Source: an uncultured bacterium (lineage in GTDB: Bacteria; Hydrogenedentota; CAZGCA01). Taken from it: a stretch of DNA of 64,000 nt. The DNA is taken from contig CAZGCA010000010.1 of NCBI GenBank assembly GCA_964524145.1, positions 13,807 through 77,806 of the forward strand, read 5' to 3'. Every line of letters begins with the position of its first letter. The stretch's first letter is position 1. Below the pieces are notes generated by a model. The model was given only the letters and a program-made list of their open reading frames with translations, was not told the origin of the DNA and did no database searches. A program made the translations under genes and the position numbers. Shown here one piece after another: positions 16,907 through 63,425 of this stretch.

Positions 16907-16979
16907 ATGGCTCCCCGGATAGCGCATGCTGCGGCATCTCGGCTTCGCCTTGACAGCTTAAATCGCACCGCCGCGACAG

Positions 16980-17440: not shown

Positions 17441-17444
17441 GCAC

Positions 17445-17586
17445 TGGACGATGTTAGAACTCTTGAGGTAGCACTCAGGAAGGTGGCTTAGTTCAAACGC
17501 TGGCTCGAAGGAAGGCTGCTCACCTGGGAACGAAGCCGAATCTCTACCCTAATTCGACCCGGCCACTGTCCCAAATGTTCTGAAGA
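17445..17586 (+). mobile_element. IS transposase 3'-end remnant with terminal repeat (copy D)
   Basis: ...cgaaggaaggctgctcacctgggaacgaagccgaatctctaccctaattcgacccggccactgtcccaaatgttctgaaga. The terminus gtcccaaatgttctgaaga is shared with the copies at 46189-46207 and, in reverse complement, 25366-25384. Confidence 0.55.
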
Positions 17587-20109: not shown

Positions 20110-20395
20110 ACTATACGTATTCGGAACATCTGGGAAAGATTGGAGCCGGTGGTAGAGTAGATATTCGGCCTCTGGCAACCGCCCAGGTTGAGAGCTTCGC
20201 GTCGTGCTAGCGTCCGGGCCCTGAGTTCCATTCCTGTTGTACCCCCCAGCGTGCCCGAATAGTCGATTTCTTCCTTGACACCCCATCTCAATGCAGGTAT
20301 GCGACCTATAGAGTAGATCTTCCGGTCAGAATATCTACAGAAGTTGGATGCTCCATATCTGGCTTCCCGTACTGGACGATGTTAGAACTATGGAG
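20110..20395. mobile_element. IS transposase 3'-end remnant (copy E), internally deleted
   Basis: ttcggaacatctggga...ggtagagtagatattcggcctctggcaaccgcccaggttgagagcttcgcgtcgtgc aligns with 25375-25470. atttcttccttgacaccccatctcaatgcaggtatgcgacctatagagtagatcttccggtcagaatatctacagaag (20262-20343) is near-identical to 25748-25826. The tggacgatgttagaact block at 20374-20394 matches copy F. Confidence 0.55.
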
Positions 20396-20477
20396 GCGAG
20401 GGCAGACACGAGTCCAATCGATAACGCCGTGGCGCTTGTTGCTTGGGTATGATGATCAGATGACCAGTTCGCAACCT

Positions 20478-34800: not shown

Positions 34801-35129
34801 CGGCAAGAAACGTGAAGTTTCGCCGTTCAACCACCTCCTTTCAGCTTGCGACAAACATATACAACGTCTAATCGGGACTATAAGACAAGAATGTTGCATT
34901 GTCAAGGGTGACGTTGGTCGGCGCAATCATGATAATGCTGAGAAGGCCGACCGAGTGCGACGCAGTAGACGGGGGCAAATCCGGTGTCGCAGTAGAGCTG
35001 TGGTGAGAAAAGCGGGTTAAACACACCCGGGACACCCTTAATCGTTCAGCAATCCAATGAAGACATACCTGTAAAGCACTATGGATAGCAAGAAACACGA
35101 CAAACAGGCTTTCACCCACCAGGTGAGCC

Positions 35130-35440
35130 AAGCCATAACGACACCGCGAAGTCCCGCAGGGACGGTTGAGAATAGCCCAGGGGTTCACTGTGGTCGAAGC
35201 TATAACGACACGCCGAAGTCCCGCAGGGACGGTTGAGAATAGCCCAGGAGTTCACTCCTGGGAATCGGTATGATGCAACGGCCTTCAGTCCCGTAGGGAC
35301 GGCTGAACCCATTTCTTGAGGTCAAAGTCTTTCAGCCGTCCCTCCGGGACTCGATATGTTGAGGGAACGCCGGTGAACCGCAGGAATAAATTCCTGGGCT
35401 ATTGTCGTTCGTCCCTGCGGGACTCTGCAAAAACGTTCCG
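35130..35440. repeat. Cluster of direct and inverted repeats built on the palindromic core gtcccgcagggac
   Basis: The unit ataacgacacNgcgaagtcccgcagggacggttgagaatagcccagg occurs at 35130-35176 and 35196-35243. Degenerate direct copies (cagtcccgtagggacggctgaa) and inverted copies (agccgtccctccgggactcg; cctgggctattgtcgttcgtccctgcgggact) follow. It is intergenic, upstream of comM. Confidence 0.7.
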
Positions 35441-35563: not shown

Positions 35564-37126
35564 TTGTGGCATGGTGGAGGTGCCGAGGTGCTTGCCCGGG
35601 TCTATTCCGCGGCGGTAATGGGCGTCCACGCGTACCAGGTGGACGTCGAAGTGGACACGTCACGCGGTCTGCCTTCGTTCTCGACCGTTGGTCTGCCAGA
35701 CGCTTCCGTCAAAGAGAGCAAGGACCGGGTGCGTGCGGCGATACGGAACTCGGGCTACTTCTTTCCCGGCGGCGTGATAACCGTCAACCTTGCCCCGGCT
35801 GACGTCAAGAAGGAGGGCCCGGTCCACGACCTGCCTATCGCGGTGGCGGTCGTCATGGCCACGGGCCAGTGCGGCGCGCAATCCGTCGACGAGTACGCCA
35901 TGGTCGGCGAGCTGTCGCTCGACGGCACCGTCCGGCCGGTCAACGGGGTGCTCTGCATGGCGATGGGAGCCAAGGAGGCCGGCCGTCGAGGCGTCATCGT
36001 CGCCGAGGAGAACGCTGCGGAAGCAGGCGTCGTCGACGGTTTCGACGTGATACCCGTCAAACACCTGCGCGATGCCGTCGGGTTCATCGAGGGTTCGGTC
36101 GAGATCGAGCCCGTCCGCGTGGATATCGCCGAGGTGTTCCGGGAAAGCGCCAGGTACAGGGTCGATTTCTCCGACGTGAAAGGCCAGGCGCACGTCAAAC
36201 GCGCGCTCACCGTCGCCGCCGCCGGAGGCCATAACCTGTTGATGGTGGGCCCGCCCGGTTCCGGCAAGACGATGCTTGCGCGCCGGTTGGCCTCGATCCT
36301 GCCCGATATGACGCTCGACGAAGCGCTCGACACCACCAAGGTACACAGCATCACCGGCCTTACGAGCGGGAAGAACTGGCTGGTTGCTACGAGACCGTTC
36401 CGGTCGCCGCACCACACGACGTCCGGCGCGGCAATGGCGGGCGGCGGCGTGCCGCCGAAACCCGGCGAGGTCAGCCTGGCGCACAACGGCGTGCTCTTTC
36501 TCGACGAGTTCCCGGAGTTTAAGCGCGACGTGCTCGAGGTGTTGCGCCAGCCTGTTGAGGACGGTATCGTCTACATATCACGGGCGAGCTACGCGGTCGC
36601 GTACCCGTCGCGGTTCATGCTCGTTGCGGCGATGAACCCGTGCGTATGCGGCCATCTCGGCGACCCGTACAAGGCGTGTTCCTGCACGCCGGGCCAGATC
36701 CACCGGTACCGGTCACGGATAAGCGGGCCGCTGCTGGACAGGATAGACCTGCACGTCGAGGTGCCGGCACTGAGCTACAAGGAGATGTCCGCACGAGGCC
36801 CTTCCGGCGACGAGTCTTCGACCATCCGCGCGCGGGTGCAGGCGGCACGCGAACGGCAACGCGCACGCTACAGCGACGACGATATCGCCCAAAACGCGGA
36901 CCTGCAGCCGGGCCAGCTCAGAAAATACTGCGTGCTGTCGCCCGAGGCCGAAGAGATGATCAAGACCGCCGTCACACGGCTCGGGCTCTCGGCTCGGGCA
37001 TACGACAAGATATTCAAAGTGTCGCGAACGATAGCCGACCTCGCCGACGAACCCGACATAGGCATCGAGCACGTCTCCGAAGCCATCCAGTACCGCTCGC
37101 TCGACCGCGAATCTGCCCTGGTCTGA
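35564..37126 (+). CDS. comM: YifB/ComM-family Mg-chelatase-like AAA+ ATPase
   Basis: LARVYSAAVMGVHAYQVDVEVD...GLPDASVKESKDRV (N-terminal Lon-like domain), Walker A MVGPPGSGKTM, VLFLDEFPEF, and a C-terminal ComM domain. The antisense ORFs 35660..36484 and 35755..36486 are spurious. Confidence 0.85.
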   Translation: MWHGGGAEVLARVYSAAVMGVHAYQVDVEVDTSRGLPSFSTVGLPDASVKESKDRVRAAIRNSGYFFPGGVITVNLAPADVKKEGPVHDLPIAVAVVMATGQCGAQSVDEYAMVGELSLDGTVRPVNGVLCMAMGAKEAGRRGVIVAEENAAEAGVVDGFDVIPVKHLRDAVGFIEGSVEIEPVRVDIAEVFRESARYRVDFSDVKGQAHVKRALTVAAAGGHNLLMVGPPGSGKTMLARRLASILPDMTLDEALDTTKVHSITGLTSGKNWLVATRPFRSPHHTTSGAAMAGGGVPPKPGEVSLAHNGVLFLDEFPEFKRDVLEVLRQPVEDGIVYISRASYAVAYPSRFMLVAAMNPCVCGHLGDPYKACSCTPGQIHRYRSRISGPLLDRIDLHVEVPALSYKEMSARGPSGDESSTIRARVQAARERQRARYSDDDIAQNADLQPGQLRKYCVLSPEAEEMIKTAVTRLGLSARAYDKIFKVSRTIADLADEPDIGIEHVSEAIQYRSLDRESALV

Positions 37127-37128
37127 CG
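36968..37128. repeat. Direct repeat copy 1: the authentic 3' end of comM
   Basis: About 160 bp that reappears at roughly 93 % identity at 38466..38629 (gccg[tc]c[at]cac[ga]cggctcgg[gc]c[tc]ctcggctcg[ga]gcatacgacaagatattcaaagtgtcgcgaacgatagccgacctcgccgacgaacc...cgaatctgccctggt[ct]tgacg). Confidence 0.85.
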
Positions 37129-37204
37129 ATGAACCTCACCCTATCCTGGGTAGGAATAGGAGAATGATAGCTGCCCCTTTTCCCCAGACAACAAGATTCA
37201 GCTG

Positions 37205-37233
37205 TTGACACCTTTCCGGAAAAGGAGTAGACT
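37205..37233 (+). promoter_or_regulatory. Sigma-70-like promoter candidate upstream of the DUF433 gene
   Basis: TTGACA (37205-37210), then 17 nt, then TAGACT (37228-37233). It is flanked by the inverted repeats gcccctttcccc and ggggaaaagg. Confidence 0.4.
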
Positions 37234-37339
37234 CGCAGATCAGAAAGGGGAAAAGGTGCCGTGATGGGGACGTTCATGGACAACCCTACAGGGGCGTCAT
37301 GAATCCTCAAGACAGCGACTATGTGGAGGTGAAGGTCTC

Positions 37340-38047
37340 GTGACACACCCAAAGACGACCACCCAAACCGATAGGCCAGAATTGGATACGCCCACGTACC
37401 CGGCTGCTGAGGCCGCACGGCTCGTGGACATAAGCGCCACGCGGGTGCGCCGGTGGCTGAAAGGATATCACTACTGGTACAGGGCTGGGGTGCGCCATCA
37501 GCGCCCCGTAATTCGTCGTAGAGGAACGGCTGGCACGAACTACGCCTCTTTCTTAGACTTGGTTGACTTGTTGTTCGTCAAGCGATTCCTGGATGAAAAG
37601 ATTAGTCTTCAGAAAGTGCGAAGAGCCCTAGATGAGGCCGCGCGGATCCTCGGCACAGACCACTTCGCGCGCCAGCGCTTCTTCACAGACGGAAGCGACA
37701 TCTATCTGCAAGTGAAGGAAGAGGGAGATGCGATTCTGCAGCTTCTTGCTGGCGGACAGTGGGTAATAGCCGAGATCATAAAACAGCTTGCCCAGCAAAT
37801 CGACTTTGACGAGCCCACTGGCCTTGCCCGTCGCTGGTATCCGTTGGGCCGTGAAGGTCTAATTGTGCTGGACCCCCTCATCTCCTTCGGGCGTCCTTCG
37901 ATCATTGGGAGGGGGGTCGCAACTGCAAATGTCTACGACCTTTTCATTGCCGAGGCACTAAGGTCAGACCGAGTCTGCACTTGGATGGACCTCAGCCCCA
38001 AAGAACTAGACGCGGCAGTCCGGTTCGAACAACAGCTGGCAGCGTGA
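37340..38047 (+). CDS. DUF433-domain protein (putative antitoxin) with a long N-terminal extension
   Basis: The C-terminal SFGRPSIIGRGVATANVYDLFIAEALRSDRVCTWMDLSPKELDAAVRFEQQL fits DUF433 (RP.I.GTRI.V.DV...L..G.S.EEI...YP.LT.E.I.AAL). GTG start at 37340. At 235 aa it is far longer than typical roughly 80-aa DUF433 proteins. Confidence 0.5.
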   Translation: MTHPKTTTQTDRPELDTPTYPAAEAARLVDISATRVRRWLKGYHYWYRAGVRHQRPVIRRRGTAGTNYASFLDLVDLLFVKRFLDEKISLQKVRRALDEAARILGTDHFARQRFFTDGSDIYLQVKEEGDAILQLLAGGQWVIAEIIKQLAQQIDFDEPTGLARRWYPLGREGLIVLDPLISFGRPSIIGRGVATANVYDLFIAEALRSDRVCTWMDLSPKELDAAVRFEQQLAA

Positions 38048-38427
38048 AATTCTTCATTGACAACAATCTAAGCCAGCAGCTTGCCAACGGGATGAAGGCG
38101 TTTGGAGAGCCTGTCGAACATCTCAAGGAAAAATTTCCCGAGAACACAGACGACCTAGTTTGGCTCAAGTATGTAGGGCAGCAGAAGATATTCCTTGTGA
38201 CACGGGACGACCGCATGCGACATAACCAAATGGAGCTTCAGTCCCTTAAGAAACACAAGGTAGGCGCGTTCTTTCTCGGCGGGAAGAACCTGAACCGTTG
38301 CCGGTTGATTCAACAGTTGGTTAGAAACTGGCCCCGAATGAAGGACTACGCCAAAAAGGAAAGGCGACCGTTCGCCTTTCGTGTCCCGCCAACAGGGACG
38401 AAATTCATGCGGATTTCTCTGAGATGA
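38044..38427 (+). CDS. DUF5615-like (Mut7-C/PIN-like putative toxin) protein, partner of DUF433
   Basis: VKFFIDNNLSQQLANGMKAFGEPVEHL...DDLVWLKYVGQQKIFLVTRDDRM matches the DUF5615 pattern (MKFL.DENLP..L...L...GHDV.HV...DEEI...A...GRVLVTKDKDF). The GTG start overlaps the upstream stop (GTGA). Confidence 0.5.
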   Translation: MKFFIDNNLSQQLANGMKAFGEPVEHLKEKFPENTDDLVWLKYVGQQKIFLVTRDDRMRHNQMELQSLKKHKVGAFFLGGKNLNRCRLIQQLVRNWPRMKDYAKKERRPFAFRVPPTGTKFMRISLR

Positions 38428-38465
38428 GAACGGCCAACGTCTTGTAGCCAACTCAGGCCATCTGT

Positions 38466-38629
38466 GCCGCCCTCACCCGGCTCGGCCTCTCGGCTCGAGC
38501 ATACGACAAGATATTCAAAGTGTCGCGAACGATAGCCGACCTCGCCGACGAACCGGACATAGGGACCGAGCACGTCTCCGAAGCCATCCAGTATCGCTCT
38601 CTCGACCGCGAATCTGCCCTGGTTTGACG
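38466..38629. repeat. Direct repeat copy 2: the displaced duplicate of the comM 3' end
   Basis: See 36968..37128. The copy is out of any long ORF context. Confidence 0.85.
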
Positions 38630-38781
38630 TCCAATTGGGCGATAGTCAAGGCATCTTCGGGCAAGAAAAGCGGCCTTCGCCAATTCCTTCGGAACTCAGA
38701 AATCGCGTTCTTGTCCCCCTCTTGCTCCGCATATGTCAAGAGCCGAATCTAGGAGCAGCGAGGGCGGCGCAACGTCTTATG

Positions 38782-39048
38782 CTAGTTAAGGCTAATGACG
38801 CCGATTCTTGCGCGAACAGAACCGGCTAGGCCGTCCAAGTCCACGACTACGTGCCACCGGCCACCATGAGGGGCAGCGACCCGACACGGCGAGACCTTCG
38901 TCCATCCGCCATAAAAGCGAAAACGTCGTCCAGACCGGTAGTTCGAGTAGTTGCCTTGATCCATGAGCATCACTCGTGCCTGCCTGTCGAGCGTGACCTC
39001 GATCGCATCGTTATTGCCTAAGGTCAACGTTGAATGGATGTACTGCAT
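38782..39048 (-). CDS. DUF1883-like small protein
   Basis: MQYIHSTLTLGNNDAIEVTLDRQARVMLMDQGNYSNYRSGRRFRFYGGWTKVSP...GGRWHVVVDLDG follows the DUF1883 pattern. Confidence 0.45.
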   Translation of the reverse strand: MQYIHSTLTLGNNDAIEVTLDRQARVMLMDQGNYSNYRSGRRFRFYGGWTKVSPCRVAAPHGGRWHVVVDLDGLAGSVRARIGVISLN

Positions 39049-39346
39049 GATTCTCTCCTTTGAGTCTGGGCAGCCTGTATCTACCAGTGTCTACTGTGTA
39101 GTATCGCGGATGAGGTGCCGAGCCGAGCGCCCAGTTTACCGACCAGCACTCTCATCGTTCGTCAACCGCATTTGGGGCTTCAAGCGCTTGTGTGGCCGCA
39201 CGCGAACAGTCTTGGGACCTGGCTTACCAGGACCGTAACATCTGGGACCCGGTTTCGACCGGCGGTGCCGTCGAACTCGCAAGCTCTCGAGCCCGAGCCC
39301 ACGTGACCGTCCACATTCTCTACTCATATCATACGCCCTCCCGTGT

Positions 39347-39502
39347 CTATCTGACCGGAATGCGCCAAGCGCGTAGGCCGTAGTCTCGCGCCCACAACTT
39401 CTCGCCCGTCTTTGGGTGACGCCGCCAAGCCCTATAGACGTACTTGGCATTCTTGCCGTTAGCACGGGCATTGTGCATGTGTCTTCTTACTGACTCTTTC
39501 AT
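39347..39502 (-). CDS. Small basic protein (51 aa) with a strong Shine-Dalgarno site; unknown function
   Basis: Not in the ORF track (below 60 aa). Reverse-strand translation gives MKESVRRHMHNARANGKNAKYVYRAWRRHPKTGEKLWARDYGLRAWRIPVR. AAGGAGTGA lies 5 nt upstream of the ATG. Confidence 0.3.
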   Translation of the reverse strand: MKESVRRHMHNARANGKNAKYVYRAWRRHPKTGEKLWARDYGLRAWRIPVR

Positions 39503-39632
39503 CGCTATCACTCCTTTCTACTTGAAAGAATACGTATATGATGCTACCCTTATATGCCGATGACGGATCAGAATTTGCCGTTGGTCTCATGATCTTGGTT
39601 AATGGCAAATTACCCTACTCGACAGGCATATA

Positions 39633-40295
39633 ATGTGGGCGGACTTCTTGCAAGGTAGGGCACGTTGGTGGAATCGAAACATGGATGAGAACCTCGCTGA
39701 AAAAGTCAGGCAAGAGTTGACAAACGAGGTCTATAGCAAGTTGATCGTCTTCGCTACGAGACTGGCAAAAAGATACGTGTGGCGCGGTGGAGACTTATCT
39801 GCCTGTGAGCCCGGCGATATAGCACTGCCTCAAGGCAACAGTGTGAGAGGTATCGTGTCGAATGCTATCATAAAGGTCATGGAGGGACGAAATAAGTGGG
39901 ACCCCCAACGGGTAAAGCTGACAACGTGCTTGATGTACAACATCCGTCGTGATATTTGCCACCTATACGAGAAGAAGGCAGCCCAACATGAACGCCAAGC
40001 CGTGGCTATGCCGGATACTTTCGTCGACGGAAGCACTGAGCCTGGGCGATATCGCCCGGCCCTACCTTCTGATCCACGTGCGCTTGCTGTGGAGAACGAA
40101 CTTCTTGAAGACATCTACTGCAGTCTTGATGGTGAGGATGACCTGATCGCGGTTTTCGAAAGGATGCTCGAAGGTAAGTCGCGAAAAGAAGTCGCTACGG
40201 AATTGCATCTCACACCAGACGAAATCACCAACACACGTAAGCGCCTTAGCAAGCGGCTAGAAGCTGTTTACAGGCGACACTGCGATGAACAGTGA
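39633..40295 (+). CDS. Sigma-70 region-4-like HTH protein (ECF-sigma-like regulator) in an accessory segment
   Basis: The C-terminal LEGKSRKEVATELHLTPDEITNTRKRLSKRLEAV is a sigma region 4 / LuxR-like HTH. The N-terminal region is loosely region-2-like. Confidence 0.4.
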   Translation: MWADFLQGRARWWNRNMDENLAEKVRQELTNEVYSKLIVFATRLAKRYVWRGGDLSACEPGDIALPQGNSVRGIVSNAIIKVMEGRNKWDPQRVKLTTCLMYNIRRDICHLYEKKAAQHERQAVAMPDTFVDGSTEPGRYRPALPSDPRALAVENELLEDIYCSLDGEDDLIAVFERMLEGKSRKEVATELHLTPDEITNTRKRLSKRLEAVYRRHCDEQ

Positions 40296-40741
40296 GCCTA
40301 CGGGTTTGGAAAGGGGCCATTGATATGTGCCACAGGGAAAATCGAAGAAGTCAGTTCGAGACCTTCTTGGATTTCGTTTTTGGCGATCCCGACGAGGTCG
40401 ATTCCATGTCCTCCGAGGAGTTGCGTGACGAGATCGCGTTGTGCGGTGGAGACATGGACAAGATTGTCGAATTGGTGCAGACAGATGTGCACAATGCAAT
40501 GGGGAGAAACCGCAGAGAAGAGGCTCGGAACATTTACCAAGAGTACAGAGAAAGGATCAAAGAGTTGCCAGAAGCAATACGGGGGAAGGTTGACCGTGTC
40601 TTGCGTAGAGATCCTCGATTGGCCCCCGTGATGATGCGGAAATTTGAGGGGGTCAGTGCAGAAGATCTTGCCAGTATGGAAGAGGATCTCGCCCTGCTCG
40701 ATCACCTAGATGAGTCGGATCATGAAGACGAAGCCTCGTGA
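40292..40741 (+). CDS. Hypothetical acidic protein
   Basis: The ORF has only a 4-nt overlap with the upstream gene. It is rich in charged residues. No recognised motif. Confidence 0.3.
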   Translation: MSLRVWKGAIDMCHRENRRSQFETFLDFVFGDPDEVDSMSSEELRDEIALCGGDMDKIVELVQTDVHNAMGRNRREEARNIYQEYRERIKELPEAIRGKVDRVLRRDPRLAPVMMRKFEGVSAEDLASMEEDLALLDHLDESDHEDEAS

Positions 40742-41522
40742 GACGCTGGCAAGAGCAAAGGCTCGAGAAATCCTCAACTACTTCTGTGTAGGCGACGCCA
40801 GCGAGATAAGCGTCCGTCATTTCGCTGCCCATCGCGGCGCTGTTGTGTTGGAGTCACCCCTCGCATGCGCTGAAGCTCGGCTCGTACATAAGAATGGGGC
40901 AAGAGCAGTCATTCGCGTGAGTAATGACATCCCGCAACAGGGGCGAAAGCGCTTCGCTGTCGCCCACGAGCTGGGTCACTGGGAGCTTCACCGGAGTGAA
41001 TCACAATTTGATCTATTTACTGGCAAAGATGCCGTCTATTCCTACGGCAAGAGCACCCTTGAGATTGAGGCCAACGTTTTTGCGAGCGAGCTTCTGATGC
41101 CTGAGTCGTTGTTTAGGCCCAGGTGTGATAGGTCCGATCCTTCGATACAGGTCATTTCGAATCTTTCACAGGAATTCACGACCACTTTGACTGCGACGGC
41201 AGTGAGATACGTGGATTCGTGTAGTGAATGTTGCGCTGCCGTCTTCTCAAAGGACGGAAAAGTGACATGGTTTCGGTGCCGAAAAGAATGGGGGCTTTGG
41301 ATTCGGGCTGGCACACGAATAGGCCCAAACACATATGCAAGGGATTGTTTCGTTGGCAGCCGTGTCCCCACGACAATGGAGCGTGTCCCCCTTGAGTCTT
41401 GGTTTCCAGAGCGCGTTGATCTCGGGCGACAACCGTTGCTCGAGACATCGATGGTTTTGGGACTTTACGGAACGGTGTTGACCCTGCTTTGGATAAAGGG
41501 AGGTATTGATCCCAGGCAATGA
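40722..41522 (+). CDS. ImmA/IrrE-family metallopeptidase (DUF955-type, mobile-element regulatory protease)
   Basis: HEXXH AVAHELGHWELH and EIEANVFASELLMPESLF. Confidence 0.6.
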   Translation: MKTKPRETLARAKAREILNYFCVGDASEISVRHFAAHRGAVVLESPLACAEARLVHKNGARAVIRVSNDIPQQGRKRFAVAHELGHWELHRSESQFDLFTGKDAVYSYGKSTLEIEANVFASELLMPESLFRPRCDRSDPSIQVISNLSQEFTTTLTATAVRYVDSCSECCAAVFSKDGKVTWFRCRKEWGLWIRAGTRIGPNTYARDCFVGSRVPTTMERVPLESWFPERVDLGRQPLLETSMVLGLYGTVLTLLWIKGGIDPRQ

Positions 41523-41663
41523 TGGGCACGCGCGTGTTTGTCCCCTCTGACCGGCGGTTGCTCAAATCTGTGATCCACAGTCGTAGCCTTGCAGGCTTAG
41601 TTGGTTTGGCGATTCGACGACGAAAGCCGCGGACTGCGCTCGCTAATCTCCGGTCTGGAGTCA

Positions 41664-41820
41664 GCGGTCAGTTGCTAGTGGCCAGCTGCTGGTGGCAGAG
41701 GGCTGGCTTCGTCCGTGCTCGTAATCGTGCGCTCGGCTTGTTCTCTGTCCGCAGATTAACGCAGATAGACGCAGACTTGGCAGTAGTCAGTGGTCAGTTG
41801 GTGGTTGTCGGTAGTCAGGC
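41664..41820. repeat. About 160-bp direct repeat, copy 1, flanking the hicBA module
   Basis: gtcagttgctagtgg...cttcgtccgtgctcgtaatcgtgcgc...gtccgcagattaacgcagatagacgcagacttggcagtagtcagtggtcagttgg is repeated with small indels at 42504..42662. Confidence 0.8.
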
Positions 41821-41933
41821 CGGGGCCATGGGTTCTTGCCCTCGTGGGACGAGGATCTCAGGCCGGACTCCCGGTGTCATCGCGGGCGACGGCGGAACAG
41901 TGTTCACGGATAGCGCTCGGATGTCCGCCGTTT

Positions 41934-42179
41934 TCATGACTGCTTTCTCTTGTAAGCCTCCAAGAATTCATCTCTCGGGATACGGGCCTGACTACAGATC
42001 GTTCTCAGAGTGGAAGCCTTGATCTTCGAATGATTAGGCATTGTCAATGGGGTTGTGTTGCCGTCGGCATTCTCGCGCACCATAGAAACGTGTTCTTTTT
42101 CGCGTACCATTCGAAAGCCCAAGTTCTCCAGCGCCTTAATCACTCTCCGTTTTGGCGCATCAACAGGGAACTTCGTCAT
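41934..42179 (-). CDS. hicA: HicA-family toxin (YcfA-like mRNA interferase)
   Basis: ALENLGFRMVREKEHVSMVRENADGNTTPLTMPNHSKIKASTLRTICSQARIPRDEF fits the HicA pattern (GSHH.F......TVP.H.KDL..GTL..IL.QAG). Confidence 0.65.
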   Translation of the reverse strand: MTKFPVDAPKRRVIKALENLGFRMVREKEHVSMVRENADGNTTPLTMPNHSKIKASTLRTICSQARIPRDEFLEAYKRKQS

Positions 42180-42403
42180 CAGTCTTCTATTCCAGCTTCA
42201 GCAACAAACGCCTCGAGGATTGGCGGCTCCACATCCAGCACCGCCTCCCCAAAGCTCTCTATGTGAAAGCGTATTGCTGATTTCACATCCGAGAGGGCTT
42301 CCTCATAGGTGTCTCCCTGACCCACCACAACACCTTTGAGCCCCAAAGGATACGCTACGCATCCATCAGGATGTTTCTCGACGATGATCTTGAACTGTCT
42401 CAT
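42179..42403 (-). CDS. hicB: HicB-family antitoxin (UPF0150 fold)
   Basis: MRQFKIIVEKHPDGCVAYPLGLKGVVVGQGDTYEEALSDVKSAIRFHIE (compare YKIVIEKDEDGGYVA..PELPGC.TQGDTLEEAL.N.KEAI). Its stop abuts the hicA start. Confidence 0.65.
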   Translation of the reverse strand: MRQFKIIVEKHPDGCVAYPLGLKGVVVGQGDTYEEALSDVKSAIRFHIESFGEAVLDVEPPILEAFVAEAGIED

Positions 42404-42503
42404 TGGCCTTCCTTTCTGCCGACACATTGTCCATCCAAATAGGATGATAACGTTCCGCTGTGTGCGCTGTCAAACAGAAATGCGGTAGACGGGGCGGAAA
42501 GCA

Positions 42504-42662
42504 GCAGTCAGTTGCTCGTGGCGGAGGGTTGGGTTCGTCCGTGCTCGTGCTCGTAATCGTTATCGTGCGCCCGGGTCGGGTTCTGTCCACAGATTAACGC
42601 AGATAGACGCAGATTCGGTAGTAGTCAGTAGTCAGTTGCTAGTTGTCAGTTGCTGGTGGCGG
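42504..42662. repeat. About 160-bp direct repeat, copy 2, flanking the hicBA module
   Basis: See 41664..41820. Confidence 0.8.
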
Positions 42663-42715
42663 GGGGCGGGGTTCATTCGTGTTCGAGCCCTTGCCCCCCG
42701 TTTTCGCAGCGAACG

Positions 42716-43927
42716 TTACCGGCGGCCCAACAGGCTGCGCGGGCGGCGGGTTCTGGTTCGGCCTTTCGTGACGGACCGGTGCCCGGCAGGATGGTAGAGC
42801 GACAGCACCGGTACGGCACCTTCCCATTCGTGGCGCGGCAGGTTCTTGCCCAACGCTTTCTCAATGGCGCTCAATGCCATGTACTCGTTCGGGCACACGA
42901 ACGTTATCGCGTCACCTTTTGCGCTGGCGCGTGCGGTCCGGCCGATACGGTGAATGTAGTCGTCGGAAGTCTTGGGGATATCGAAATTGACCACGTGAGA
43001 GATGCCCTCGACGTCAAGGCCGCGTGCCGCGACATCGGTAGCCACCAGGATCTTGTAACGTCCGTCCCGAAACCCGTCGAGCGCCTGCTGACGTTGGTGT
43101 TGCGTGCGGTCTCCATGGATGGCCTGGACCTTGAACCCTTCCTTGCGCAACGATTTGGCGAGACTGGCAGTGCGCCGTTTCGTGCGCAGAAAAACCAGCG
43201 CGGACCGGACGTGCGGCTCGCGCAGAATCTTCGCGAGAAGCCTCTGCTTCCGCGTCTGATCCACCGTGTAAATCCCCTGCTGTACGGTCTCGACAGGCGC
43301 GGCGACAGCGCCCACTTCTATGCGAAGCGGGTTGCGTTGCATGTCGGCGGCCAACCGGCTGATACTGTGTGGGAACGTCGCGGAGCACATCAACGTCTGG
43401 CGGTTCTTGGGAAGCGTTTTCAGAATGCGCCTGATATCGGGCAGGAACCCCATGTCAAGCATCCGGTCCGCCTCATCCAGCACGAGTATCGACAGGTTGT
43501 TGAACCGGACGTTGCCGCGCGTGATATGGTCGAGCAACCGCCCGGGTGTGGCCACAACGATCGCGCTCCCTCGTTTCAAGGCCCGGGACTGCGGTTCGAT
43601 ACCGACCCCGCCATAGACGCACGTGGTACGAAGTCCGACCGCTCTTCCAAATGGTTCGATGACCGCGTGCACCTGCTGGGCCAGTTCGCGCGTGGGCGTG
43701 ACCACGAGCATGCTGTTGCGTCCCGACCGCTGGGCCCCGAGACGTGTCAGCGACGGCAACGCAAAGGCAAGCGTCTTGCCCGTGCCCGTTTGCGCAACGG
43801 CTGTCACGTCCCGACCCTCGAGCGCCGGCGGTATTGCCTGCGCCTGAACGGGCGTCGGTTCCGAGATCCGCTGGGTCTTCAGCACGCTGAGACACCGCGG
43901 ATCTATTTTGAATTGTTCAAAGGACAT
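42716..43927 (-). CDS. DEAD-box ATP-dependent RNA helicase
   Basis: Start at the internal ATG 43927 (MSFEQFKID). Motifs AQTGTGKT, PTRELA, VLDEADRMLDMGF, SAT and HRIGRTARA are present. The plus-strand ORFs 42650..44086 and others are antisense artifacts. Confidence 0.85.
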   Translation of the reverse strand: MSFEQFKIDPRCLSVLKTQRISEPTPVQAQAIPPALEGRDVTAVAQTGTGKTLAFALPSLTRLGAQRSGRNSMLVVTPTRELAQQVHAVIEPFGRAVGLRTTCVYGGVGIEPQSRALKRGSAIVVATPGRLLDHITRGNVRFNNLSILVLDEADRMLDMGFLPDIRRILKTLPKNRQTLMCSATFPHSISRLAADMQRNPLRIEVGAVAAPVETVQQGIYTVDQTRKQRLLAKILREPHVRSALVFLRTKRRTASLAKSLRKEGFKVQAIHGDRTQHQRQQALDGFRDGRYKILVATDVAARGLDVEGISHVVNFDIPKTSDDYIHRIGRTARASAKGDAITFVCPNEYMALSAIEKALGKNLPRHEWEGAVPVLSLYHPAGHRSVTKGRTRTRRPRSLLGRR

Positions 43928-52689: not shown

Positions 52690-53312
52690 TTCACCTGTAC
52701 GTCTTCAGACTGTTTGCTGTTGAAGTGAACGGGACTCTCCAGGTCATCGTCAACGCGAGCAAACGAGTTCGAAGCTACGACGCCGAGACGGGCGACCTGA
52801 TCTGGGAGTGCGGGGGACAGACGATCAATGCCATTCCGTCGCCGGTCAGCGGTTTCGGAAACGTATTCTGCACCAGCGGTTATCGGGGCAGCGCATTGCA
52901 GGCCATCGAATTGGGCCGCACGGGCGACCTGACGCGCACCGATGCCATTAGCTGGGAGGTGAAAGAGGCCACCCCCTATACACCTTCCCCGCGGCTCTAC
53001 GGCGACAAGATCTATGTCTGTGCGGTCAACAAGGCCGTCATTTCGTGCTACCAGGCCGAGACGGGCAAGGCCAACTTCGTGAAACAGCGGCTCGAAGGGA
53101 TGAAGGAGATCTATGCATCACCCGTCGGGGCAGCCGACCGCGTGTATTTCGTCGGCCGGGACGGTAAGGCTACAGTCATCAAACGGTCAGAGAAAGTCGA
53201 AGTGCTGGCCACGAACACCCTCGACGATGAGATTGACGCCTCCCCCGCCGTCGCGGGCAATGAACTGTTTCTGAAAGGCAGAACCTACCTCTATTGCATC
53301 GCCGGTTCGTAA
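52690..53312 (+). pseudogene. 5'-truncated PQQ-like beta-propeller (BamB-like) gene: 3' blades only
   Basis: ORF 52611..53312 encodes propeller blades (VNASKRVRSYDAETGDLIWE...IYVCAVNKAVISCYQAETGK...VYFVGRDGKATVI...NELFLKG) without a signal peptide or N-terminal blades. Its 5' end runs into the convergent DUF2961 gene. Confidence 0.45.
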
Positions 53313-53335
53313 AGGAGATCGGCCTTTTACTTCTG
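53064..53335. repeat. Direct repeat copy 1: the 3' end of the PQQ-propeller gene
   Basis: About 270 bp repeated at roughly 90 % identity at 54846..55120. ORF 54862..55095 re-encodes MKQRLEGMKEIFASPVGAAGRVYFVGRDG...LFLKGKTYLYCIA. Confidence 0.85.
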
Positions 53336-53503
53336 GAATAGACGTGGTCGCCGGCTGGACCCACCCGTGGATCAACGGTGGCCCATGCTCATTGACCGCC
53401 ATGCGTCGTTTAAGCCAGCGTTGTCATCTGTTGATGCCTGTGCCGCTGCACGTAGAGACGAATTAAGTGTGATGTCCCCTGAATCACTGTTGCAGCTGGC
53501 CAA

Positions 53504-54682
53504 TCAAATGAGCCTGTTGCTAATCAGAAAGCTCCTACCTTTCTGGTGAATGCCGTACAAAGGCGGGCGCCCCCTGCCGTGGCTAGTATGGATATAGTCT
53601 TGCTCCTGAAGCGATCTTAAGTGGTAGCGAGTTACTAGCACAGAGAATCCCGTTGAGTGCGATATCTCGGAATCCTCCATCCGCTCTCGACCGGACTCTT
53701 CTGCCGCTGCAAGTAGCTTAAGAATCTTGACCTTTTCTTCCTCCAACCCACCTACCTGAGTCGTCTGCTCTGGAGGCGGTTCTTTGTAGGCAACTTGACC
53801 GATAATATCTCTTAACGATGCGAAGACTCCGTCGCCTGTTTCCCAAAACTCCCCATACGACTTACCGCCATCTACATAAAGCTGATGATCTTTTAGCCTT
53901 TTCAGGTTGGAGATCTGAGTCTCTATACCCTGCAGCACGGGTTGATCTGCAACGCCTTCCAGATTTGCGCCGAAATCGATGAGGTCTGATGTAAGCCGTT
54001 TTAATATGTACTTGGCGTCGTCAATACTAACAGGTTTGCTATCACGTTCGGTCGTCCAATCCACTTCAGCTCGTGTGACAAGAGCCTGCAGCTGTTGCTT
54101 CACGGAATCAACTGAACGAAGATCCTCATCGATACCTATAGTAACAAACGAGGGCTCGCCATGGAGTTGTCGGACTACCCTTGTTAGATGTCTAAGGAGC
54201 TTTTCCCTCAGACCAGAAACTGAATCATATTTATCAGGAAGACCCGCAGCCTGGCATTTCTCTTTAAAATCGGTAAGGAGCTTATATTGCTCGCGATCGA
54301 CACTGTCAAGCGCTACGGGAACTGATGAAAAATACAACAATACTGGTTTCCCTGCTTTCTCCATTTCCTGGATTTCTTCAACGGTACCCGACTCTGCGAC
54401 GCCGGTGTGAGTCCCTATTCTTGTCCAGAACGCGCCCACCAGCATGTCACAAGCGCCGACGAGTTGTTTGTTTATAATGGCCTGTGGCCTGTCTCCCAAT
54501 TCCGGAGTGGAATGAGTCTCCCACATAACCGGCATAAGCACTACGCCGTAGTCTTCTGAGTGAGTAGCATTCCACGCGCTGACAACTTCGGGTATCGCTT
54601 TCCGCTCAGCGATCACATCGCTGGGAGAAGCAATTAGGATTCTGTAAACTGTCGCTTCATATGCCATTTCTTGTTTTCCCAA
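53504..54682 (-). CDS. Protein with an N-terminal DUF4062-like (TIR/SLOG-like Rossmannoid) domain; cargo of the repeat-flanked insertion
   Basis: YRILIASPSDVIAERKAIPEVVSAWNATHSEDYGVVLMPVMWETHSTPELGDRPQAIINKQLVGACDMLVGAFWTRIGTHTGVAESGTVEEIQEMEKAGKPVLLYFSS matches the DUF4062 pattern (VFISSTF.DL.EER..V.E.I...G..PV.ME.F.A......I..CD..I.I.G.RYG). This segment is lower in GC than its flanks. Confidence 0.5.
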   Translation of the reverse strand: MGKQEMAYEATVYRILIASPSDVIAERKAIPEVVSAWNATHSEDYGVVLMPVMWETHSTPELGDRPQAIINKQLVGACDMLVGAFWTRIGTHTGVAESGTVEEIQEMEKAGKPVLLYFSSVPVALDSVDREQYKLLTDFKEKCQAAGLPDKYDSVSGLREKLLRHLTRVVRQLHGEPSFVTIGIDEDLRSVDSVKQQLQALVTRAEVDWTTERDSKPVSIDDAKYILKRLTSDLIDFGANLEGVADQPVLQGIETQISNLKRLKDHQLYVDGGKSYGEFWETGDGVFASLRDIIGQVAYKEPPPEQTTQVGGLEEEKVKILKLLAAAEESGRERMEDSEISHSTGFSVLVTRYHLRSLQEQDYIHTSHGRGRPPLYGIHQKGRSFLISNRLI

Positions 54683-54845
54683 TGTGATCGAACATGCGCC
54701 TCTTCACTGGGTCACCCCCCACAGAGGTCTCCCTTTACAGTTGTCGGTTCTCAACCCGTCATCATGGTATCCCGAAAGGCCCCGTCTGTCAAGGCGAAAG
54801 ACGTTAACCAGGCGGTTGGTGCTTCACTCTTATTCCGCCGTTTAC

Positions 54846-55120
54846 AGGCAAGGCCAACTTCGTGAAGCAACGGCTCGAAGGGATGAAGGAGATCTTCGCA
54901 TCACCCGTCGGGGCAGCCGGCCGCGTGTATTTCGTCGGCCGGGACGGTACGACTGCGGTCATCAAACGGTCGGAGACGTTCGAACTGCTGGCCACCAACA
55001 CCCTCGACGATGAAATCGACGCCTCCCCCGCCATCGTGGGCGATGAACTGTTTCTGAAAGGCAAGACCTACCTCTATTGCATCGCCGACGTCTAAAGGAG
55101 CAATGCCGTTTACTTTTCGA
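54846..55120. repeat. Direct repeat copy 2: the displaced duplicate of the PQQ-propeller gene 3' end
   Basis: See 53064..53335. Confidence 0.85.
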
Positions 55121-55938
55121 CCATAGGTGGTCCCTTTACCGTGATTCTCCCAGGTGCCTGTCTCCTGTTTTTCTCATCGCACCTTCAGATCAAGGGAAAT
55201 AGGTGTGGTGTCCCTGCGAAGGGAGATGCCTACCAGGTCAAAAAGTGTTCACCTGCCAGCGATTATTGGAGTGACAAGCAGAACAGGGTCAGGGAGTGGG
55301 AGAGCCATGTGCCCGAGTTGTGCCTGAGACGCGACAACTCGGATGGTCTTTCGCATGTGAAGGACAGCGCAGCACAGAACCCTCCGCAACCCTCTAGACG
55401 TTTCCTACCTCTCCGGCAGGCGCAGCCCTAAGGCTGACGCTTCGAACGGCACGGCGAAGCCGAACGCTACCACTTTGTTTAGAATATGGATTCTCACAAA
55501 TATAAATCAATCCCACGATATGAAAGAAGTTTTGTGCACCCTCTCAGCTCCCTTAGGTTTCCCCCTTCCCGGACTCTACCCCCTTCCCGTGAGGCCTGAA
55601 ACAGCGCGCCCAATCTTGATGGGGTCAAGCTTGTGAATCGTGCGCTGATCCTGCAGGCTCGTTCCTTGTCCCAGGCGAAACTCGCCCGCTCCCTTTAGTG
55701 ACCTAGACAATTTGAGATTGGCCCATCTCCGAGCATGCGGTCGTCGTGCGGTCGTCGTGCGTGAGTTTGTCCACGGCGCTTTTGCATGCTCCCCTCTCGT
55801 TGCCGGCCTGCCGTGAAAACCGTTAGACGGCCACGGGCCTCGGCAGCTTCCGCTTGCGCGCACCTGACCACACTGCCCAGCGTGGCCCGTACCCCTGAAT
55901 CTTGTATCAGGATAAGAAGACGGAGAGCACCGGTTAAT

Positions 55939-56223
55939 AGAGGTCAACTGCTGCAGCCGCTACGGACTCAAGGCCGTCAAAAGTCCAGGGTGACGCCGGG
56001 AATTCGCTTGACGTAACTGGTAAGGGAGGCGTATCATTTGGTCAGAGGGATGCAAAGAGGACAATGGTCTATGCTCGTACGCGCAGTCGAGGTGTGCGCA
56101 GCCCTTTAGACGGGTTATGAGGGGATGAGTTACGCGTGTTGCACGGCAAAATCGCCAAATAGAGGTGTTACACGGAAACCATGTAACACGTAGTTAGCTC
56201 AAGATGGAAAGGAGGTAAGGCGA
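55939..56223. repeat. Duplicated roughly 300-bp upstream regulatory region, copy 1, with an operator-like palindrome
   Basis: ctgcagccgctacggactcaaggccgtcaaaagtccagggtgacgccgggaattcgcttgacgtaactggtaagggaggcgta...ggtgttacacggaaaccatgtaacacgtagttag is homologous to 57684..58022. The palindrome gtgttaca-N9-tgtaacac sits at 56165-56190. Confidence 0.75.
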
Positions 56224-56553
56224 ATGACGAAGCAAGCGAAGATACTGATTGGAGTTGGGCTCTTGGTGCTGACGCTAGTTCTTGGTTTCTTCGCGTACCG
56301 CGCACAAGCGAAGTACAATCAGGCTATCGGGCGCACCGTAAGCGTAGCATCAGGTCAGACGGGGCCGATCACTGACAACACGCTGGTCCAGGTCCAGCTT
56401 TTTGGTCCACAGCGGAGGGAAGAAGACGCAGCAAAGAACAACCGCAATATGCTGGTAGTTGTCACTGTGCTTGCAGGAGTAGGAGCTGTTCTGTTCATCA
56501 TCCTAGGCATCGCCAGTAAGGGCGCAGTTCCACAGCCGGGAAAGGAGGGCTAA
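56224..56553 (+). CDS. Small membrane protein (two transmembrane segments), unknown function
   Basis: MTKQAKILIGVGLLVLTLVLGFFAY...LVVVTVLAGVGAVLFIILGIA. GGAAAGGAGG precedes the ATG. Confidence 0.4.
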   Translation: MTKQAKILIGVGLLVLTLVLGFFAYRAQAKYNQAIGRTVSVASGQTGPITDNTLVQVQLFGPQRREEDAAKNNRNMLVVVTVLAGVGAVLFIILGIASKGAVPQPGKEG

Positions 56554-56641
56554 CTCCCCGTAGAGCACGGCTGTCAAGGCCGCATGCCAAGCGCAGCCCT
56601 TGGCAGCGGCTTAGCCGGCTCGTTAGGGTAGGAAGCTTACA

Positions 56642-57613
56642 ATGCCAGTCTGCAAACGCTGCAACGAAAAAGTGGGCCTTCTTGCGTCCCTCAAAGCGCA
56701 CTGTGGATTATGTGAGGCGCGCCGTCAGAAAGCGAGCGAACTAGCGAACACCTATGAAGAGCGAGGGGCAACAGCATGCATCGATGAATTGGTGGATGTC
56801 GCCCGCAATTTAATTAGAGTCGCGCCCTGGCACTCGGCTTCCGGTGATGATATGGAACCAGTTGTTAACAGTCTTATCTGCGTCGGGCGTTTGGACGAAG
56901 CGCGTGAGCTTGTCCGGCGAGAGATGAAGATTGAGAGGTGCGAACGTGCGTTCCTAGCCTATGATGCCGTCGAGCGTCCGGAGGTCCTCACAGAAAAGCT
57001 CCTGCATGATTTTCCTCCAGACGAGGACTTTGACCCGTTCCGTTTGTTCCGTTTGGCCAGGGCTTTCGTAGTACTCGCATACTTCGAAATAGCATCCGAC
57101 AACGTGCTCGATCGTAAGGGACTCGTGCGTTGGTCTCAGGAGAGAGCTGCCGAGCTTGGGTATGCGCCGTACGCTGAAGACATTAGCAACCGGGTGAAGA
57201 ATCTATGGACGCAGTACCCCGCGTTATTGTGCGACGCTTGTCAACGGTTCGGCCATCTCCATAATGCAGAGGAGATGTTGGCCCGGGCATTGGAAGACGC
57301 CGGCCCTTTGCCAGATCACCAAGCGAACTGCTGCCGCTGCCTGACTCTCATTGGCATGGGGCGACTAAGCGAAGCACAGGATATTCTCGCAAGACACGAA
57401 CTTTCGTATCACACAGCGCGCGTAACTGCACTTCTGGCCAACGCATATCTGCAAAAGCAAGACACAGTCGGCGCTTTTTGGACCGCGCTGGGGATAGGTA
57501 ATGAGTTCTTCTCGAGCGGTATCTTGCGCTTTGCGCCGCACTTGGTGCGTGAGGCCAGCAAGGTGGCTTCGTTCTTTGCTTTGAACACGCTACTGCGTGA
57601 TTGGTGGGTATGA
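56642..57613 (+). CDS. Hypothetical protein with an N-terminal zinc-ribbon-like CxxC...CxxC
   Basis: MPVCKRCNEKVGLLASLKAHCGLCE. The rest is helical and uncharacterised. Confidence 0.4.
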   Translation: MPVCKRCNEKVGLLASLKAHCGLCEARRQKASELANTYEERGATACIDELVDVARNLIRVAPWHSASGDDMEPVVNSLICVGRLDEARELVRREMKIERCERAFLAYDAVERPEVLTEKLLHDFPPDEDFDPFRLFRLARAFVVLAYFEIASDNVLDRKGLVRWSQERAAELGYAPYAEDISNRVKNLWTQYPALLCDACQRFGHLHNAEEMLARALEDAGPLPDHQANCCRCLTLIGMGRLSEAQDILARHELSYHTARVTALLANAYLQKQDTVGAFWTALGIGNEFFSSGILRFAPHLVREASKVASFFALNTLLRDWWV

Positions 57614-57683
57614 AAACCAATCGGGGTACGCCCTGACAAGCGCATGCACGCACCTGTCCACGCTGCCAAGCATGGAAGCGAAC

Positions 57684-58022
57684 TGCTGTAGCCGCTGCGA
57701 ACGCAAGGCCGTCAAAAGTCCAGGGTGATGCCGGGAATCCGCTTGACGTAACTGGTACGAGAGGCGTACCATTCGGTCAGAGGGATGCAAGGAGCACAGT
57801 GGTGCATGCTCGTGCGCTCAATGGCGGTGGTCGAAGTGTGCGGAGCTCCGTTGACGCGTCATGAGGGGATCGGTTACGCGTGTTACGTAGAAACTATGTA
57901 AGACGCGTGGTAAATGGTGAGGGAGCTGTAATCCCCTCTCTTGAAATGGGTTTTGCAGGTCGCGTTTGTACGTGTTACCCGGAAACCATGTAACACGTAG
58001 TTAGGCCTAAAAATCCGTAAAG
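57684..58022. repeat. Duplicated upstream regulatory region, copy 2
   Basis: See 55939..56223. The palindrome cgtgttacccggaaaccatgtaacacg is at 57971-57997. A second partial palindrome ttacgcgtgttacgtagaaactatgtaagacgcgtggtaa lies upstream. Confidence 0.75.
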
Positions 58023-62706: not shown

Positions 62707-63425
62707 CGGCTCGGCAACAAGAGACCGTCGTGGAGTTCCAACACGCGGTTCATCCGCTGCGCAACATGGAGAGAATGCGTCACGACGAGGAGCGCCATGC
62801 CCTCTTCGCGGTTCAGTTCCAGGAGGAGCGCGGTCAGGTTGTCGGCGCCTTCCTCGTTGAGCGACCCCGTCGGTTCATCGGCCAACAGCAAGCTCGGTTC
62901 GTTTATGAGGGCGCGAACCACGGCAACGCGCTGCCGTTCGCCGCCCGAAAGCTGGCCCGGACGGTAGTCCGCCCGGTCGGCAAGACCCACCCGTTCGAGA
63001 AGGCTCCGGGCGCGTTCTCCCGCCTCCCGCGTCGCCGGGTTGACCAGTGTTGGGACCAGCACGTTTTCGAAGACGGTACACTGCGGCAGCAGGTGGTGAA
63101 GCTGGAACACAAACCCAATCTCACGGTTGCGAAACTGTGCGGCATCGGTGGGCGTAAGCTCGAGCACGTCGCGCCCTTTAAATGTCACCGAACCCGACGT
63201 CGGTCGGTCCAGTGCACCGATGATGTTGAGCAGCGTGCTTTTCCCGCAACCGGACGGTCCGACAACCGCGACGGCCTCTCCCGGGTCGAGCCGCAGATCG
63301 ACACCTTTGAGAACCTTGGCGGGCATTGGGAACGCGTCGTATTGCTTGCTGACCCGGCTCAGTTCGAGTAATGGGCTTGTCTCTTCCACAGTAGCTGTTT
63401 CCCCGCTATTCCGCTGGCTCGCCAA
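62703..63425 (-). CDS. ABC transporter ATP-binding protein (LolD/MacB-type)
   Basis: Walker A GPSGCGKST, signature LSGGERQRVAVVRAL, and Walker B LLLADEPTGSLN. Confidence 0.85.
   Translation of the reverse strand: MASQRNSGETATVEETSPLLELSRVSKQYDAFPMPAKVLKGVDLRLDPGEAVAVVGPSGCGKSTLLNIIGALDRPTSGSVTFKGRDVLELTPTDAAQFRNREIGFVFQLHHLLPQCTVFENVLVPTLVNPATREAGERARSLLERVGLADRADYRPGQLSGGERQRVAVVRALINEPSLLLADEPTGSLNEEGADNLTALLLELNREEGMALLVVTHSLHVAQRMNRVLELHDGLLLPSR

Follow-up and report, generated by a model that had tools for sequence, protein, structure and literature searches.

The hicB and hicA genes of an uncultured bacterium of the Hydrogenedentota lie between two imperfect direct repeats. We analyzed this locus within a stretch of 64,000 nucleotides (positions 13,807 to 77,806 of contig CAZGCA010000010.1, assembly GCA_964524145.1; hereafter the window), to which all coordinates refer unless a locus of another genome is named. 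We propose, with moderate confidence, that hicBA is a horizontally acquired, addictive cassette whose entry, through recombination that is not site-specific, left a unit of host spacer DNA on both sides. The hicBA genes are foreign to the genome while the repeats are host-like in composition, and host-derived direct repeats are shown here to be in statistical excess around this hicBA family in other genomes.

Direct repeats around hicBA

An earlier reading of the letters alone (hereafter the sequence-only reading) had noticed imperfect direct repeats on either side of hicB and hicA, and both a repeat search of the window and a MAFFT alignment bear this out. Copy A (41659-41819; G+C 58.0%) is distal and copy B (42500-42656; G+C 57.5%) proximal to a neighboring helicase gene; neither is assigned to a strand. 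The copies share the same orientation, measure ~140-160 nt and are ~80% identical, and the ~680-nt insert between them contains only hicB and hicA and no mobility gene. The repeat search returned a 99-nt pair (41714-41812 and 42552-42650; 83% identity), together with a family of 63 nt that occurs three times (41659-41721, 42485-42547 and 42623-42685) and, in copy A, ends at 41721 within the hexamer run. MAFFT aligned copy A (~41680-41819) and copy B (~42504-42656) over ~140-150 nt at roughly 80% identity. The sole indel, 12 nt or two hexamer units by which the run of copy B is longer, is a slippage signature as expected after duplication. Ten independent metagenome contigs carry the locus at 99.7-100% identity and without polymorphism, and it is therefore not an assembly artefact.

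Each copy is a mosaic of three short tandem repeats with units of 7, 6 and 10 nt (heptamers GTCAGTN, hexamers CGTGCT/CGTAAT and decamers CGCAGATNNN) and a G-rich block, termed X. In copy A, heptamers (41659-41681) are followed by block X, which extends from ~41682 into the hexamer run (41711-41734), by the decamers CGCAGATTAA/CGCAGATAGA/CGCAGA (41750-41775) and by further heptamers (41782-41819). Copy B keeps this order, with a heptamer stub from ~42503, block X at 42517-42549, hexamers at ~42536-42571, decamers at 42588-42613 and heptamers at 42620-42656. There are two exact occurrences of the 24-mer CAGATTAACGCAGATAGACGCAGA in the window and 0.00 in shuffled sequences; for GTCAGTTGCT with at most one mismatch, there are eight sites in the 64 kb (3.4 expected), five of them inside the two copies. 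The gtcagttg sub-repeats that the sequence-only reading placed inside the repeats do exist as tandem heptamers, yet they are one of three distinct modules. As ordinary tandem repeats of the host spacer, they are also not element-specific recognition sites. The same reading counted two repeat copies and did not separate out a third, partial unit (heptamers plus block X1; 42623-42685, no strand assigned) that abuts copy B in tandem, 138 nt start-to-start from the copy B unit, and that matches the first part of copy A at 81% identity. Read along the minus strand, the helicase stop codon (42716) is followed by a G+C-rich hairpin (42700-42660) that includes block X1, by heptamers (CAACTGA/CTACTGA), three decamer units (TCTGCGNNNA), hexamers (CGAGCA/CGATTA) and block X2, and then by the promoter, hicB and hicA. 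Beyond hicA, a 113-nt spacer leads to heptamers, decamers, hexamers and block X3, after which unique DNA begins.

The cassette and the gene next to it differ in their relatives and in their composition. HicB and HicA are 84-96% and 75-83% identical, respectively, to proteins of many phyla (Planctomycetota, Nitrospirota, Zixibacteria, Thermodesulfobacteriota, Chloroflexi and Firmicutes), whereas the best non-self match of the helicase is 77% identical and its named relatives are Candidatus Hydrogenedentes. The G+C content of hicBA is 49-52%, and 53-57% at third codon positions (GC3), as compared to 62-65% (GC3 75-83%) for the helicase and comM genes; hicA alone has 48.8% (GC3 57%) and the helicase gene alone 62.4% (GC3 75%). 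The repeats, at 57.5-58.0%, equal the window mean of 57.6%.

We surveyed 80 metagenome loci encoding close HicA relatives, 67 of which had usable flanks, and compared the sequence upstream of hicB with that downstream of hicA for shared direct or inverted repeats of at least 30 nt. Direct repeats spanned the module in 11/67 loci and inverted repeats in 0/67; L092 and L113 being one locus, 10 of the 11 are independent. As a control, 470-nt pseudo-inserts were placed at random in the fetched loci, and of 346 such inserts two had direct and three had inverted repeats. When both flanks reached at least 300 nt, the direct-repeat counts were 7/55 loci versus 2/346 controls (Fisher p ~2e-5), and with flanks restricted to 300 nt, they were 6/55 versus 0/407. 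The surveyed repeats range from 31 to 193 nt at 84-100% identity and are unlike in every genome. One is the first 68 nt of carB, the downstream open reading frame (ORF) being confirmed as carB; another is a putative gltX 5' region, identified by direct reading of the sequence without confirmation from a domain search; a third is a gene C-terminus (L143), both versions of which are in frame to their own stop codons. An extra genome locus, L035, carries a 47-nt repeat (98%) that corresponds to a tRNA-Ser 3' end. The repeat lies 24-279 nt from hicB at the other loci and 72-96 nt here, according to the copy B boundary chosen, and 8-291 nt from the hicA stop codon as compared to 113 nt here. No conserved cassette ends were detected, as similarity at the DNA level is confined to 42419-41888 in comparisons with 90 related loci, and the repeats of 12 hicBA loci are unrelated and share no core.

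Three other inserts of the window, all annotated on the plus strand and with a G+C content of 50.5-55%, below that of core genes, are bracketed as well. At 36966-38629, the last 163 nt of comM up to its stop codon (36966-37128) recur 1.5 kb downstream (38467-38629; 94%), on the far side of a toxin-antitoxin-like pair with HTH_66/DUF433 and PIN_10 domains (37340-38427). Eight of the ten differences between the comM copies are synonymous third-position changes, and the detached copy has the appearance of a surrogate gene end that came from a different lineage. At 53061-55132, the 289-nt 3' end of a gene for a PQQ-type beta-propeller protein (53061-53349), made up of its 83 final codons and a further 37 nt, has a second copy at 54844-55132 (86.5%) with frame and stop codon retained; the cargo is a 392-aa ORF on the minus strand (53504-54682) with weak DUF4062 and Csa3-like HTH matches. 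At 55946-57884, a non-coding, promoter-like repeat of ~204 nt (~55946-56140 and ~57681-57884; 82%) encloses ORFs of 109 aa (56224-56553) and 323 aa (TPR; 56642-57613). The recurring pattern that the sequence-only reading described for comM and the propeller gene is therefore real, with gene 3' ends duplicated around inserts, and extends to this additional pair. Its further suggestion of a common recombination-based process agrees with the survey (11/67 loci versus 2/346 controls) and with four bracketed modules in the window, but a single family of miniature elements with shared ends does not, given that the repeats differ, are host-derived and have no conserved termini.

Origin of the repeats

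In the scenario that we favor, hicBA would have reached the spacer that lies downstream of the DEAD-box helicase gene through recombination without site specificity, leaving one ~140-160-bp host spacer unit on each flank. The repeats would then be an insertion scar of host DNA, and their 7-, 6- and 10-nt sub-repeats slippage-prone spacer content rather than signals of an element. The resulting 838-bp unit could loop out or amplify through the repeats in a RecA-dependent manner, while its loss would be counter-selected since HicA is expected to outlast HicB. Loop-out together with counter-selected loss would explain why unstable, repeat-flanked structures persist preferentially around addiction modules. 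The duplication might arise de novo at insertion or, alternatively, through Campbell-type integration of a circle whose homologous arm came from a related donor. The Campbell-type variant fits the coding repeats better: 8/10 differences in comM and 4/4 in carB are synonymous, and frames are intact in L143 and the propeller copy. This lean is suggestive and not decisive (p ~0.02-0.2 depending on the assumption, by our own rough calculation), and the two variants are not separable here.

Several observations weigh against this scenario. No empty site was found, as hicBA is present in all 12 metagenome contigs of this locus and every contig with the HicA or the adjacent M78 peptidase gene keeps the same arrangement, and it is for this reason that we infer, rather than observe, a duplication at insertion. 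The nearest helicase orthologues (77%) are non-syntenic and their downstream spacers unrelated. About 84% of the related hicBA loci have no repeat of at least 30 nt, and the survey controls were placed at random positions that were not matched to small-gene boundaries. The two copies are only ~80% identical, which calls for an old event, for fast decay of tandem repeats or for an arm from a diverged donor. Finally, copy B is joined in tandem to a third partial unit, which shows that the spacer was already repetitive, and the copies could therefore predate hicBA.

The strongest rival explanation builds on this last point. It assumes a pre-existing minisatellite of ~2.3 tandem copies of a 138-nt unit, in which ~680 nt of hicBA and promoter landed at a unit boundary; nothing was duplicated and the bracketing is incidental. 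The third unit abuts copy B at exactly the 138-nt spacing that such an array predicts, units begin and end in heptamers as they would head-to-tail, and the divergence between copies A and B (~80% identity) is similar to their divergence from the third unit (67-81%). A tandem array of ~140-nt units is present elsewhere in the genome (6256-6686), though it is coding, and insertions that fell by chance between repeats are a recognized class in Furuta et al. (PMC2853133). However, repeats of at least 30 nt flank 0.6% of the random 470-nt pseudo-inserts as compared to 16% of the hicBA family, and no second array of this unit exists in ~73 kb. Moreover, the three other inserts of the window use 163-289 nt of unique host sequence, which renders a pre-existing array implausible in their case, and we consider this explanation rather unlikely for hicBA. 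Improbable, in our view, is also the remnant of a site-specific integrative element, similar to a cis-mobilizable element (CIME), whose integrase was lost or acts in trans, whose attachment site (att) lies inside the repeat and whose island was trimmed to the unlosable toxin-antitoxin pair. Here, the duplicated tRNA-Ser 3' end at L035 is a classic integrase signature, integration is known to target comM and gene 3' ends, and low-G+C accessory DNA (38630-41658) adjoins copy A. Likewise, the detached 3'-end copies are in frame with mostly synonymous differences, as in carried surrogate gene ends. Nevertheless, no integrase or transposase is found among the genes called between 31.9 and 52.2 kb, the repeats of different loci have no core sequence in common and cassette boundaries vary by tens to hundreds of nucleotides. 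The target at hicBA is a non-coding tandem-repeat spacer and not a gene end, and repeated random trimming to hicBA, 8-35 nt past the stop codon, in many independent genomes is unlikely.

It is highly improbable that the repeats are functional themselves, be it as ends of miniature inverted-repeat transposable elements (MITEs), iterons, HicB operators, or as a structured RNA or terminator. This possibility draws on the periodic sub-repeats, on the position of each copy after a gene end on the minus strand and on the wider occurrence of the decamer triplet, whose 24-mer forms a hairpin arm after stop codons among 18 genomes of at least six phyla (see below). Yet neither the copies nor the bracketed unit end in inverted repeats, there is no short target duplication, and the unit occurs at this locus only: no other copy was detected in the window plus 8.9 kb past its end (~73 kb of the genome). 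Its junction patterns had no matches in viral contigs, and plasmids and phages gave none to the repeat either; the lack of matches to the junction patterns in metagenome contigs is weak evidence because the window's own locus is absent from that collection. The copies fold no better than shuffled sequences on both strands (z 0.25-0.55), no Rfam family matches them even at E up to 10, and the cassette boundaries have no inverted symmetry and none of the imperfect attC palindromes that mark integron cassettes. No rep gene lies nearby, and sub-repeats of 6, 7 and 10 nt are not in-phase iterons of ~17-22 bp. HicB is predicted to lack a DNA-binding domain, the likely promoter is outside the repeat, the complementary decamer arm is missing from the window and the repeats of other hicBA loci are unrelated. 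The resemblance to iterons or MITE ends that the sequence-only reading saw is therefore not sustained; the search for further copies that it suggested, made over ~73 kb of the genome, and the RNA folding both came back negative. As for the combination that it would have counted against mobility, the repeat is indeed confined to this locus, but a mobility signature is present at the level of the hicBA family. We also examined whether the repeat is a decayed C-terminal tail of the helicase and rejected this idea, as the tails of its relatives are equally long.

Extending the insertion-scar scenario beyond hicBA, we tentatively suggest that small addiction cassettes, including toxin-antitoxin and restriction-modification systems, might share an enzyme-independent cycle. 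In this cycle, which we regard as possible, though not probable, insertion with a long duplication would be followed by loop-out of a circle with one repeat copy and by RecA-dependent re-integration into related genomes at that same gene end, with the repeat serving as homology arm. If true, it would explain why detached gene-end copies keep their frames and differ mostly by synonymous changes, and it would account for the movement of toxin-antitoxin modules that have no mobility genes.

Genes, sub-repeats and other repeats of the window

The hicA gene (41934-42179, minus strand) encodes an 81-aa HicA toxin of the mRNA interferase family, and a profile search assigns it to Pfam PF07927 (HicA_toxin; E=5.2e-10, 39.7 bits, exceeding the cut-off of 27). 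hicB (42179-42403, minus strand), identified from gene calls and a structure match, encodes a short, 74-aa antitoxin that is preceded by a GGAAGG ribosome-binding site 5' of its ATG. The hicB stop and hicA start codons overlap at 42179, and the co-oriented pair is called alike in 10 contigs. While hicA is canonical, as the sequence-only reading had stated for both genes, hicB is a short form that remains below the Pfam threshold (HicB_lk_antitox PF15919, E=0.02). Its AlphaFold model (mean predicted local distance difference test, pLDDT, 77.8) combines a beta-beta-beta-alpha topology with a second, short helix and a tail that is disordered. All of the 11 best PDB matches are HicB antitoxins (among them 6g26, 4p7d and 6hpb; probability >=0.97, TM ~0.6), and they span only the N-domain of full-length targets of 132-139 aa, plus N-domain constructs of 81-86 aa. 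According to the model, the N-terminal (partial RNase H-like) HicB fold is present and the C-terminal DNA-binding domain (RHH or HTH) is absent; autoregulation via operators would thus not be expected. Among 8,000 scored proteins, the best 120, which come from Planctomycetota, Nitrospirota, Zixibacteria, Thermodesulfobacteriota and others, are 84-96% identical to this 74-aa HicB. Such tight conservation is unusual in an antitoxin and would imply very frequent recent transfer or strong constraint. In Brocadia (L029-L034, 3243-3764), the closest hicBA copy is followed by a candidate fragment of an IS200/RAYT-type tyrosine transposase, as judged from our own reading of the translation, and in some strains by a group II intron reverse transcriptase after this fragment.

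A likely hicBA promoter, TTGACA-18-TATCAT (42444-42473, minus strand), was assigned by consensus match only (11/12 positions) and lies between copy B and hicB. In the 113-nt spacer from the hicA stop codon to copy A (41821-41933, minus strand), the first 46 nt (41933-41888) alone resemble other hicBA loci. On the copy B side, the host core gene for an RhlE-like DEAD-box RNA helicase (42716-43927, minus strand) has its stop codon 31 nt from the repeat region. On the other side, an M78/IrrE-type peptidase gene (40722-41522, plus strand) is convergent with hicA and belongs to the low-G+C accessory stretch.

The decamer array (three units of CGCAGATNNN; 41750-41775 and 42588-42613) belongs to a hairpin family found across phyla (L001-L018, L045-L072), with a consensus of approximately TTAACCGCAGATGNACGCAGATGNACGCAGAT - loop - ATCTGCGTNCATCTGCGTNCATCTGCGGTTAA. 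The exact 24-mer of the decamer triplet was recovered from 18 species-representative genomes of at least six phyla, with hosts among Verrucomicrobia, Planctomycetes, Treponema, Acidobacteria, Cyanobacteria and Deltaproteobacteria. In 13/18 genomes, it forms the left arm of a hairpin, the right arm (ATCTGCG units) following 24-261 nt downstream, and the hairpin typically lies right after a stop codon. A degenerate form of the decamers is present in 28 viral contigs, often as arm pairs. In the window, the decamers occur in one orientation only and no complementary arm was detected, so that they are at most half of such a hairpin. A literature search found no paper that contains the arm sequence, and Rfam holds no family for the full hairpins. 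Whole small genes lie within some of the hairpin loops or arm pairs (L065, 3464-4091; L066, 960-1317), and at L100 (2196-3669) the arms enclose hicBA. A general role of CGCAGAT-type arms as hicBA cassette boundary was considered and rejected, given that L100 is the only such case among ~90 loci. Periodic arms with a different unit are seen in L035 (~2560-2640), where a terminator-like hairpin past a stop codon has arms of tandem heptamers (TAGTAGA/TAGACAG), a second example of this kind.

The heptamers resemble the TAACTGA/STRR repeats (MacGregor, 2015; PMC4679880), related arrays of which occur in distant phyla (PMC4679880): on the minus strand, they read CAACTGA/CTACTGA, form 4-5 tandem units and are intergenic. 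In contrast to TAACTGA repeats, the units (CAACTGA, CTACTGA and CAACTAG) include no exact TAACTGA. They are also not start-adjacent, as the nearest start codon on the same strand is ~190 nt off, and they constitute one module of a larger duplicated mosaic.

Other repeats of the window are listed for completeness. The large ones at 3.7-9.8 kb are due to four tandem paralogous genes on the minus strand (3753-9818), one of which has three in-frame tandem units of 141 nt (6256-6686), and are unrelated to the bracketing pattern. A 56-nt inverted repeat (15088-15143 and 17493-17548; 89%) spans 2.3 kb and has a three-membered family of 40-60-nt direct repeats in its vicinity (13406-13473, 17429-17496 and 20357-20396); the region (15088-17548) could represent either a unit similar to a transposon or a further scar of recombination. 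Just upstream of comM, Acido-Lenti-1 RNA matches at 35217-35262 (minus strand) and 35379-35424 (plus strand), with scores of 51.9 and 37.5 bits, make up an inverted pair over 44 nt at a distance of 120 nt, beside a 67-nt tandem duplication (35123-35256); the phyla that give this motif its name do not include Hydrogenedentes, the nearest named relatives of the genome. A 180-nt segment (62938-63117) in or beside an ABC-transporter ATPase gene is missing from an otherwise 100% identical JGI contig (L163) and thus represents an indel polymorphism.

Relation to known systems

HicAB systems of E. coli, Yersinia pestis (HicA3B3) and Burkholderia pseudomallei (PMC11594946) share with the pair described here the HicA domain, the N-terminal HicB fold, overlapping bicistronic genes and horizontal transfer. 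Solved HicB proteins have ~135-140 aa, whereas the one encoded here has 74 aa and is predicted to be devoid of the C-terminal DNA-binding domain, and its subfamily is unusually conserved across phyla (HicB 84-96%). Flanking repeats are not mentioned in the 2024 review of HicAB (PMC11594946), and how toxin-antitoxin modules integrate has been called unknown (PMC7167474).

Among elements with direct repeats, CIMEs and integrase-dependent elements at tRNA or comM 3' ends are similar in that attL/attR repeats surround a small insert and surrogate 3' ends keep their coding potential. However, an integrase in cis, a conserved core between cases, fixed ends and a constant repeat length are all missing here. 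Likewise, MITEs and iterons display short internal repeats within 100-200 bp, but are distinguished by terminal inverted repeats, a short target duplication of fixed size, dispersed copies or a replication gene, none of which accompanies the hicBA repeats. For annotation, such repeats would be better read as insertion scars than as MITEs or iterons.

The closest parallel is 'insertion with long target duplication', which has been described for restriction-modification systems of all types, with repeats of >30 to ~400 bp, no mobility genes and a mechanism that is unknown (PMC2853133; PMC3874152); Nobusato et al. (2000, Gene 259:99) is likewise cited for long target duplication by restriction-modification complexes. 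Furuta, Abe and Kobayashi (2010; PMC2853133) hypothesized that these systems cycle through insertion, amplification mediated by the repeats, and release, and recognized such insertions by direct repeats of >30 bp, an insert of <20 kb without a mobility gene, a repeat unique to the locus and a single-copy empty site. The hicBA locus agrees with this description in repeat length, in the size of an insert that is free of mobility genes and, within ~73 kb, in the uniqueness of the repeat. In both cases, a small addiction unit without mobility gene is flanked by long, variable, host-derived repeats that often stem from gene ends or tRNA genes and differ from case to case. The cargo here, however, is an RNA-targeting toxin-antitoxin pair and not a DNA-cutting system, and the duplicated target is rich in tandem repeats and accompanied by a third partial unit. 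While double-strand breaks made by the cargo have been proposed to drive restriction-modification insertion (PMC2853133), HicA cuts RNA, and cargo-made DNA breaks would therefore not be required for such insertion. One of the most widely transferred hicBA lineages, with long, host-derived direct repeats at ~1/6 of its loci, together with the same type of scar around three further inserts, a PIN-type pair among them, within 20 kb of one genome, would thereby tie the mobility of toxin-antitoxin modules to the long target duplication known from restriction-modification systems.

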